NCBI GenBank assembly: GCA_902787715.1
Contig: CADAHQ010000005.1
Span: 2,576 to 66,575, forward strand
DNA from: an uncultured Lachnospiraceae bacterium
GTDB taxonomy: Bacteria > Bacillota > Clostridia > Lachnospirales > Lachnospiraceae
DNA: 64,000 nt
Direction: 5' to 3'
Shown here: positions 47,154 through 47,621 of the stretch, one piece after another
Position numbering within the stretch: the first letter of the stretch is position 1
Layout of the letters: every line of letters begins with the position of its first letter
Position numbers and translations under genes: made by a program
The notes under the pieces: generated by a model
What the model saw: the letters and a program-made list of their open reading frames with translations, nothing else
What the model was told of the DNA's origin: nothing
Databases searched by the model: none

Positions 47154-47621
47154 CAGCCGGATAGTCCGACAGTGCATCAGCGGCTGAATCACCTCCGTTT
47201 ATGGAACCTTGCGCCGGGCACCTTTCCGGCAGAGATATGGGCGCGAGCACAGCGGAAGAAGCATTGTGACTCGCAAAAAACAAGGCACAGTGATGTCGAC
47301 TGTAAAGTCGGCTATCACAGTGCCTTTTTTGCGAGGGGAATCTTAGCGCGCGTGAGGGCGCGCAGGGCGTTTCGAGGACTGTTCGAAGTCCGCTGTCGCC
47401 CCCTTATTCCCTTTTAGTTAAACATATAAACGACAGCGGGCAAGCCCCGCAGAAACGCCCTCGTCCCAGCGCCCGAGCAGCACGCTTAGATTCCCTGCAC
47501 CTGCGCCTTCCGCTGTGACTCGCGCCCATAGAAAGCTCTGCCGTAAGAAAGGTTCCCGGCGCAAGGTTCCTATCAGGTACTAGTTATTCAGCCGCTGATG
47601 TACTGTAGGACTATCCGGTTG
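47154..47621. repeat. ~460-nt imperfect palindrome that includes the 3' end of the deacetylase gene
   Basis: Paired blocks: 47154-47189/47586-47621 (33 of 36), 47203-47218/47555-47570 (16 of 16), 47236-47258/47507-47530, 47336-47348/47483-47495 (12 of 13), 47364-47373/47452-47461 (10 of 10), 47389-47397/47431-47439 (9 of 9). AT-rich apex at 47398-47430. Confidence 0.75.
47270..47335. terminator. long bidirectional terminator-like hairpin inside the palindrome's left half
   Basis: CTCGCAAAAAA-C-AAGGCAC-A-GTGAT-GTCGAC / GTCGGC-T-ATCAC-A-GTGCCTT-TTTTGCGAG (about 30 bp imperfect, loop TGTAAA). Flanked by A6 and T6. Confidence 0.6.

Follow-up and report, generated by a model that had tools for sequence, protein, structure and literature searches.

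Organization of the locus and structure of E1

The window analysed here, a stretch of 64 kb from an uncultured Lachnospiraceae bacterium (contig CADAHQ010000005.1), contains a ~470-nt imperfect palindrome, E1, which sits between the convergent genes of an FMN reductase and a DUF5011/NodB polysaccharide deacetylase in one rumen Lachnospiraceae species. An inverted-repeat finder, a gapped alignment of the arms and energy folds confirmed the palindrome. The features described in the original prediction, namely two arms, a second paired tier and a side hairpin (H1) on the left only, were all recovered where it had placed them (Table 1). The apical stem (H2) and its AT-rich loop are also present, with a stem of 11 bp instead of the 9 bp first described and a loop of 32 nt instead of 33 nt. 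Five independent metagenome assemblies carry the sequence over 46637-47639 with 100% identity (L001-L004 were also compared across 46600-47700). Thus, the palindrome is not an assembly artefact.

The repeat finder detected inverted repeats at 47154-47192 / 47583-47621 (39 nt, 90%), 47203-47226 / 47547-47570 (24 nt, 96%) and 47236-47247 / 47519-47530 (12 nt, 100%), and further ones at 47248-47263 / 47502-47517 and 47336-47351 / 47480-47495. The gapped alignment pairs 47154-47258 with the reverse complement of 47507-47621. The arms of ~105-125 nt flank an asymmetric core of ~230 nt, which is composed of two closing stems, a conserved 20-nt block and two variable hairpins. The minimum-energy fold of 47140-47635 has an energy of -305.8 kcal/mol on the + strand (shuffled sequences, -168 +/- 6; z = -23.2) and -294.7 kcal/mol on the - strand (z = -20.6), and the predicted fold of the palindrome comprises 186 base pairs in total.

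In the second tier, the left strand (47336-47383) holds GGGAATCTTAGCGCG and the 3' half of the inner P stem (GGGCGTTTCGAGG); it is kept across alleles and shows compensatory changes relative to the sister element E2 described below. The right strand (47443-47495) is ancestral 3' untranslated region (3' UTR) of the deacetylase gene from ~47490 outward. H1 is preceded by an A-run and followed by a T-run on both strands, and its presence in the left half only marks the orientation of the element. Given its predicted fold (-40.7 / -34.7 kcal/mol, z = -8.9 / -7.5) and the U-tracts of both strands, H1 is shaped like a bidirectional intrinsic terminator. A simple terminator scanner overlooked it, owing to the length and the interruptions of the stem.

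Table 1. Positions of E1, its parts and associated features in the window
Feature	Position	Strand	Description
Left arm	47154-47258		Inverted copy of the deacetylase gene 3' end and 3' UTR (inverted-repeat finder, gapped arm alignment)
Left-arm pseudo-codons	47154-47189		12 pseudo-codons QPDSPTVHQRLN, without stop codon
Right arm	47507-47621	-	3' UTR 47507-47579; stop codon 47580-47582; last 12 codons and Asn 47583-47621
Outer stem	47142-47268 / 47498-47631		108 bp, predicted fold
Side hairpin H1	47270-47335 (47270-47301 / 47306-47335)		28-bp stem, predicted fold
Second tier	47336-47383 / 47443-47495		39 bp, predicted fold
Apical hairpin H2	47388-47441 (stem 47388-47398 / 47431-47441)		11 bp; 32-nt AT-rich loop
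Conserved asymmetric block GGCGTTTCTGCGGGGCTTGC	47440-47459	-	Common to sister element E2 at 37236-37255 (+ strand)
DUF5011 / polysaccharide deacetylase (NodB) gene	47580-49373	-	597 aa; Pfam families
Sister element E2	37120-37510		Paralogue 10 kb away, between convergent HMGL-like and HSP20 genes
Insertion relative to sister species	~45896-47489		~1.6 kb, approximate extent
FMN-reductase gene	46006-46635	+	Within insertion
Five-hairpin array	46698-47113		CTACGGCC-N22-GGCCGTA units, 94-95 nt spacing; abuts left arm

Alleles and co-variation of the arms

Alleles were collected by look-ups through the identical T2SSE and NAPRTase proteins and by a pattern scan of JGI metagenomes, the latter adding just two, both of the E1 locus. 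The resulting set consists of nine distinct deacetylase-adjacent E1 alleles from 12 assemblies, in which the arms are of two types: type A, as in the window (five alleles), and type B (four). Type-B arms represent the ancestral 3' UTR of the deacetylase, with the intrinsic terminator native to this gene immediately behind the stop codon. Putative intrinsic terminators are recognizable by sequence both in H1 with its U-runs and in the type-B right arm, where a hairpin followed by U8 stands after the stop codon.

Identity between the arms of types A and B is only 71-75%. Left arms, compared with reverse-complemented right arms, show 80-86% identity within every single allele and 66-71% across the types. 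A consensus fold of the nine alleles contains 150 pairs, 25 of which are changed on both sides. The sequences of H2 are unrelated among the window, L024, L026, L029/L040c2 and L040c1, with a hairpin formed in every case. Pairwise diversity is up to ~7% in patches of the deacetylase gene and 2-22% on the FMN-reductase side, and the diversity at the palindrome stops abruptly at ~47640.

The L005 and L006 contigs, from two different assemblies, both end in ...CTGCGGGGCTACAT, where H2 starts (equivalent to ~47445); the divergence point of the L024 and L026 alleles lies 6 nt before this end. These contig ends at the start of the apical hairpin suggest that several alleles co-exist in single rumen samples.

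The coding arm and its inverted copy

The right arm takes in the end of the deacetylase gene, with its final 12 codons and its stop codon, as the original prediction had it. Its further observations were likewise borne out: the left arm re-encodes QPDSPTVHQRLN, the three differences between the arms in this segment are all synonymous third-position changes, and the homology of the arms stops at the Gln codon. The closest homologues of the deacetylase (at least 62% identity) end in ...LPLxPDSPT(V/S)HH(R/G)LNN, and distant ones retain related motifs. The C-terminal sequence ...LPLQPDSPTVH(H/Q)RLNN is thereby kept among the closest relatives. Conservation of the C-terminus in the closest relatives indicates that the coding arm is native and that the left arm is the inverted copy; it also led us to reject a transposable element as the source of the gene's last codons. 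A second deacetylase gene in the window (57140-58405) was rejected as the source of the left arm, since it ends in ...RFALLDEVP and a degenerate pattern of the 3' end matches one site only.

Comparison of the nine alleles showed that all eight polymorphic sites among the 36 pseudo-coding bases of the left arm are third-position and synonymous. By our calculation, eight sites would be confined to the 12 third positions by chance with a probability of C(12,8)/C(36,8) = 1.6e-5. The differences between the left and right arms of eight alleles are also at third positions without exception. The left arm lies outside any open reading frame (ORF) with a start codon, and the stop codon is lost from it in both arm types. 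The signal behind the earlier suggestion that both copies have been read as codons is real. The simplest account of the synonymous-only pattern is repeated exchange between the arms combined with selection on the translated arm, and a double inversion could yield the same pattern.

A crossover in the shared CATCAGCGGCTGAAT would add ~75 codons to the deacetylase, until the TAG at 47415-47417 (ORF 47172-47417), close to the 76-codon extension first proposed. Between strains, the last ~19 codons of the gene (47581-47637) are hypervariable and multi-allelic at synonymous sites, the adjacent ~500 bp are ~99% identical, and patches further upstream reach ~7%. The stop codon itself shows a TAG/TAA difference in L017.

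The sister element E2 and the E1 copies of strain L040

An energy scan of the window gave two outliers, the E1 locus and 37100-37550. The latter contains E2, which folds with z = -16 on both strands and holds a perfect 24-nt inverted repeat (37155-37178 / 37447-37470). The blocks GGCGTTTYTGCGGGGCTTGC, CGAACAGTCCTCRAAACGCC, CTAAG(A/C)GC and GCAATGC occur in E1 and E2 in the same order, and a search with the conserved block GGCGTTTCTGCGGGGCTTGC gave two matches in the 64 kb versus 0.01 expected by chance. The variable hairpins are located at the same two places in both elements, and a consensus fold of the E1 and E2 cores contains 37 pairs, of which 14 are compensatory. Like E1, E2 is hypervariable between strains, with arms that vary across alleles and match within each. 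Its interior (~37195-37450) is inverted in L037, L040 and L041, with both flanks collinear, which indicates that inversion does happen in the E family.

A motif search and an energy scan of the gathered sequence revealed copies of E1 and E2 only, two in the 64 kb and three in L040. Strain L040 (11934-15820, on the same contig as L020) carries two E1 copies in opposite orientation around a 3.1-kb AT-rich island. The first copy has type-A arms without deacetylase codons, directly follows the stop codon of the FMN-reductase gene and is flipped; the second has type-B arms and adjoins the deacetylase gene. The island, which takes the slot of the 94-nt hairpin array absent from this strain, encodes a single 975-aa SF2-helicase-like protein. 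The matches of this protein are weak only (Pfam Helicase_C/ResIII and PADLOC PDC-S61), and a PD-(D/E)xK-like C-terminus was read by eye without a profile match.

The insertion around E1 and neighbouring features

The sister species, whose deacetylases are 62-73% identical to that of the window, share the order NAPRTase - C11 peptidase - deacetylase, convergent with the T2SSE ATPase gene. Their spacer between the deacetylase and ATPase genes is only 77-180 bp, with ordinary terminators and no palindrome. Relative to them, the window has gained the FMN-reductase gene, the 94-nt hairpin array and the left three-quarters of the palindrome. An 84%-identical FMN-reductase gene is found at its native locus in a sister species with neither element nor array downstream, and the idea that the element travels with this gene as a cassette is thus not supported.

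The array lies between the stop codon of the FMN-reductase gene and the left arm. Its hairpins have a conserved foot of 8-9 bp (CTACGGCC...GGCCGTAG) and variable 22-nt tops, with a spacing of approximately nine helical turns. The array is almost invariant among strains whose palindromes differ by 30%, and it contains two weak promoter-like sites on the - strand. The two-unit exact pattern of the array has no match in the GTDB representative genomes.

The spacer at 45800-46000, from the T2SSE terminator to the FMN-reductase start, forms the left boundary of the insertion and has 10-22% pairwise strain diversity. The T2SSE (PilT-like) ATPase (44778-45836) is 100% identical at the protein level to that of the sister species (L016/L018/L023/L025), and the neighbouring deacetylase is 72-73% identical; the protein is indexed in 125 blocks of the contig collection. 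Its identity reflects either an unusually constrained gene or a recent exchange. After E1 and E2, the most structured 300-nt windows of the energy scan (z ~ -3) are 17950-18250, which overlaps the coding sequence of a Zn-transporter ABC ATPase (17744-18463), and 1400-1700, which overlaps the start of a glutamine synthetase III gene and its upstream spacer.

Searches for further copies and known families

The E motif is absent from the sister species that lack the inserted genes. Exact-pattern or BLAST searches of GTDB representatives, IMG/VR, plasmids and phages returned no E elements, and a 21-mer of the core has zero matches in the GTDB representative genomes. A phage or plasmid origin was thus left without any BLAST or pattern match. 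Rfam gave nothing at the gathering score in the window and chance-level matches only at relaxed thresholds, and neither a known RNA family nor an integration site linked to transfer RNA or transfer-messenger RNA was found. Pfam scans that covered the large ORFs of the 64 kb detected no recombinase, integrase or transposase domain. For eight related contigs, the gene tables list no integrase, invertase or transposase within +/-10 kb.

The E elements lack the ends typical of miniature inverted-repeat transposable elements and REP-type repeats: the arms are the most variable part, derive from the local flanks, and have no direct duplication at their edges. The core sites of integron attC have the consensus RYYYAAC/GTTRRRY. 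Compared by eye with this consensus, the conserved blocks of E1 and E2 are unlike it, and no integrase was found. E1 matches no known family.

Origin and possible role of E1

The structures and alleles indicate that E1 is most likely neither a programmed switch nor one giant RNA hairpin. We hold, with moderate confidence, that E1 is a quasi-palindromic terminator module reshaped at the DNA level, with termination or insulation between the convergent genes as its sole likely physiological role. Template switching between imperfect inverted repeats is known to homogenize and expand arms and to invert spacers (PMC8604942, PMC13100816, PMC5941160, PMC7202029), and arm-to-arm gene conversion has similar effects in large palindromes (PMC8327919). 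At E1, replication template switching, arm-to-arm gene conversion, or both would copy one arm from the other. Such copying would keep the arms alike, would have extended them outward into the coding end of the deacetylase gene, and would occasionally invert the interior. Purifying selection on the real coding arm, together with exchange, would leave only synonymous variation in the pseudo-coding arm. The signatures of template switching, from which the switching events are inferred, are seen as homogenization of the arms in the alleles, extension over the 12 codons, and inversion in E2 and the L040 copy. RecA-type gene conversion between the arms may contribute as much as polymerase switching. 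The module itself would most likely act as a compound two-way transcription terminator or insulator.

Several observations weigh against this interpretation. Published template-switch arms are ~5-20 bp with spacers of a few bases, whereas the arms of E1 are ~110 bp and the interior is ~250 bp. The asymmetric blocks GGCGTTTYTGCGGGGCTTGC, CGAACAGTCCTCRAAACGCC and GCAATGC are identical in E1 and E2 while the hairpins turn over, which a purely mutational process does not explain. The alleles diverge by 10-28% within the palindrome, compared with at most 1% both in the T2SSE gene and in the nearest ~500 bp of the deacetylase gene. Such divergence of the palindrome exceeds what mutation in place and homogenization easily give; it may require sequences imported from other lineages or exchanged between members of the family that are not in the sample. 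The synonymous hypervariability reaches ~16 nt past the edge of the palindrome into the gene, where there is no partner arm, and thus is not explicable by arm exchange. Finally, E1, E2 and both L040 copies lie exactly at the junctions of accessory-gene insertions, which hints at a role in recombination.

The conserved blocks, the depth of the divergence, the hypervariability outside the palindrome and the coincidence with the junctions keep another, albeit unlikely, explanation alive, in which the E elements would be structure-defined recombination modules. Accessory genes (the FMN reductase, the helicase island, LysR and HMGL) would be inserted, exchanged or flipped at or beside them, by a logic resembling that of integron attC or plasmid pdif, with the core recognized and the arms rebuilt from flanking DNA. 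Both elements in the window stand at a boundary between conserved genes and genes missing in the sister species, and the two opposed copies of L040 enclose a single-gene island. Two different inserts adjoin the left arm at its left edge, with junctions 3 nt apart. The conservation of the core blocks, with hairpins and arms that vary and keep their pairing, and the varying orientation of E2 and the L040 copy are also consistent with such modules. However, no integrase, invertase or transposase was found in the 64 kb or in the gene tables for +/-10 kb on the eight related contigs, only two to three copies were seen, the exact-pattern scans of GTDB representatives, IMG/VR, plasmids and phages are empty, and the FMN-reductase gene occupies its native sister-species locus without an element. 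It is similarly unlikely that E1 and E2 represent an undescribed class of structure-defined DNA modules in rumen Lachnospiraceae, in which a trans factor would recognize the core and rebuild the arms from the flanks. Accessory genes might be inserted, exchanged and flipped at such modules, which would mark or mediate these events as a 400-nt, cruciform-capable analogue of attC or pdif without a linked recombinase.

The original prediction also considered a very long structured 3' UTR or antisense RNA. In such a device, read-through of H1 would allow the left-arm RNA to pair in cis with the end of the deacetylase coding sequence, from the twelfth-last codon to the stop codon. The resulting duplex would expose the transcript to double-strand-specific RNases or block translation termination, tuning the expression of the deacetylase. 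We consider both this pairing and its proposed consequence rather improbable. The fold on the gene-sense strand is very stable, and the type-A alleles have lost the gene-proximal terminator, so that their transcripts must run into the palindrome. However, H1 stands between the arms and is terminator-like in both directions, and the type-B alleles are predicted to end the mRNA right after the stop codon. Terminator hairpins in these positions would cut transcripts before both arms are made, which argues against a giant RNA hairpin. L029 has 22 G-U pairs on the gene-sense strand versus 4 on the other, an excess that is largely due to the terminator U-tract lying opposite C's of the other arm; no consistent strand preference was found for the whole palindromes or the cores. 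Compensatory pairs are present (14 of 37 in the core, 25 of 150 in the full alignment), but the strands fold equally and concerted evolution of the DNA gives the same signal. Furthermore, E2 works in either orientation relative to its neighbours, and no Rfam family matches.

The invertible switch of the original prediction fared worse. In this scenario, which we judge very unlikely, the deacetylase would alternate between a normal and an extended C-terminus as the interior of the palindrome is flipped by a recombinase with its gene elsewhere. Such a switch would account for long inverted repeats overlapping the coding end, and for 12 left-arm codons that stay intact in all alleles with synonymous-only variation. 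One codon even shows swapped arm states between alleles (CCG/CCT vs. CCT/CCG), E2 is inverted between strains, and some known invertons have no nearby recombinase (PMC9881135). However, the nine gene-adjacent alleles of the 12 assemblies are all collinear and have H1 on the left, the FMN-reductase side, without exception, and no recombinase was found among the large ORFs of the 64-kb window. The stop codon is missing from the left arm in both types, and a flip would replace the conserved ...RLNN* with a non-conserved tail, ~75 codons long in type A and ~30 in type B. The interior is non-coding, nearly symmetric and without a promoter match, so that flipping changes little else. Three of the four features expected of gene-altering inversions (PMC9881135) were not found at E1.

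Palindromic duplication comes closest among the three explanations originally offered, not as a strain-specific relic but as a variable structure, with nine alleles in which the arms co-vary and a paralogue 10 kb away. A one-off duplication scar without process or function, for which absence from the sister species and, by exact pattern, from the GTDB representatives might speak, is already contradicted by nine alleles whose arms differ between and match within them, by E2 in the same window, by the second copy in L040 and by the synonymous-only variation of the pseudo-coding arm, and retains hardly any probability.

If E1 is indeed a terminator module reshaped at the DNA level, it would be an unusually large and well-sampled natural case of bacterial inverted-repeat dynamics, in which the arms have grown across a stop codon into 12 codons and selection on a gene end is imprinted on a non-coding copy. 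Palindromic terminator regions could then become local hot spots of diversity and structural change beside accessory genes. Programs that rely solely on inverted repeats and covariation to detect invertons or structured RNAs would misclassify the E1 locus. If, instead, the E elements are recombination modules, they would indicate that gene cassettes are exchanged by an unknown mechanism in a major family of the gut and rumen.

Comparison with known systems

Bidirectional intrinsic terminators between convergent genes are ordinarily 30-60 nt in size. H1 and the arm hairpins of type B resemble them, having GC-rich stems flanked by A- and T-runs and lying between convergent genes, whereas E1 as a whole is a nested 470-nt structure that includes coding sequence. 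Interspersed repeats such as ERIC, REP/BIME and Correia occur in tens to hundreds of copies with conserved ends. The E elements share with them a non-coding, structured nature, a location in transcribed spacers at the 3' ends of genes, occurrence in either orientation and terminator-like hairpins, but differ in their two to three copies, variable ends, conserved interior blocks and larger size (390-470 nt).

In gene-altering and intragenic invertons (PMC9881135, PMC10028968), the repeats overlap a coding end, as in E1, and the C-terminus is in principle swappable. Gene-altering inversions often target cell-surface proteins, and the deacetylase is predicted to be one (a Bact_surface_Ig-like domain and an N-terminal membrane-anchor-like segment). 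Unlike these invertons, E1 has no nearby recombinase, no orientation polymorphism at the deacetylase locus and an implausible alternative end, and it is palindromic throughout rather than composed of two short repeats around a functional cargo.

The quasi-palindromes generated by template switching in the Ripley model show the homogenized arms, the extension into the flanks and the inversion of the spacer that are seen in E1 and E2; in contrast to them, the core of E1 holds conserved asymmetric blocks. The palindromes of sex chromosomes (PMC8327919) have concerted arms and invertible spacers, as the E elements do, at a scale of kb to Mb and in other organisms. In the coding palindromes of Nematomorpha mitochondria (PMC6649704), an arm overlaps coding sequence as in E1, which has one genic arm only. 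Common to E1 and these coding palindromes is that selection on the coding arm filters the content of the other arm (PMC6649704).

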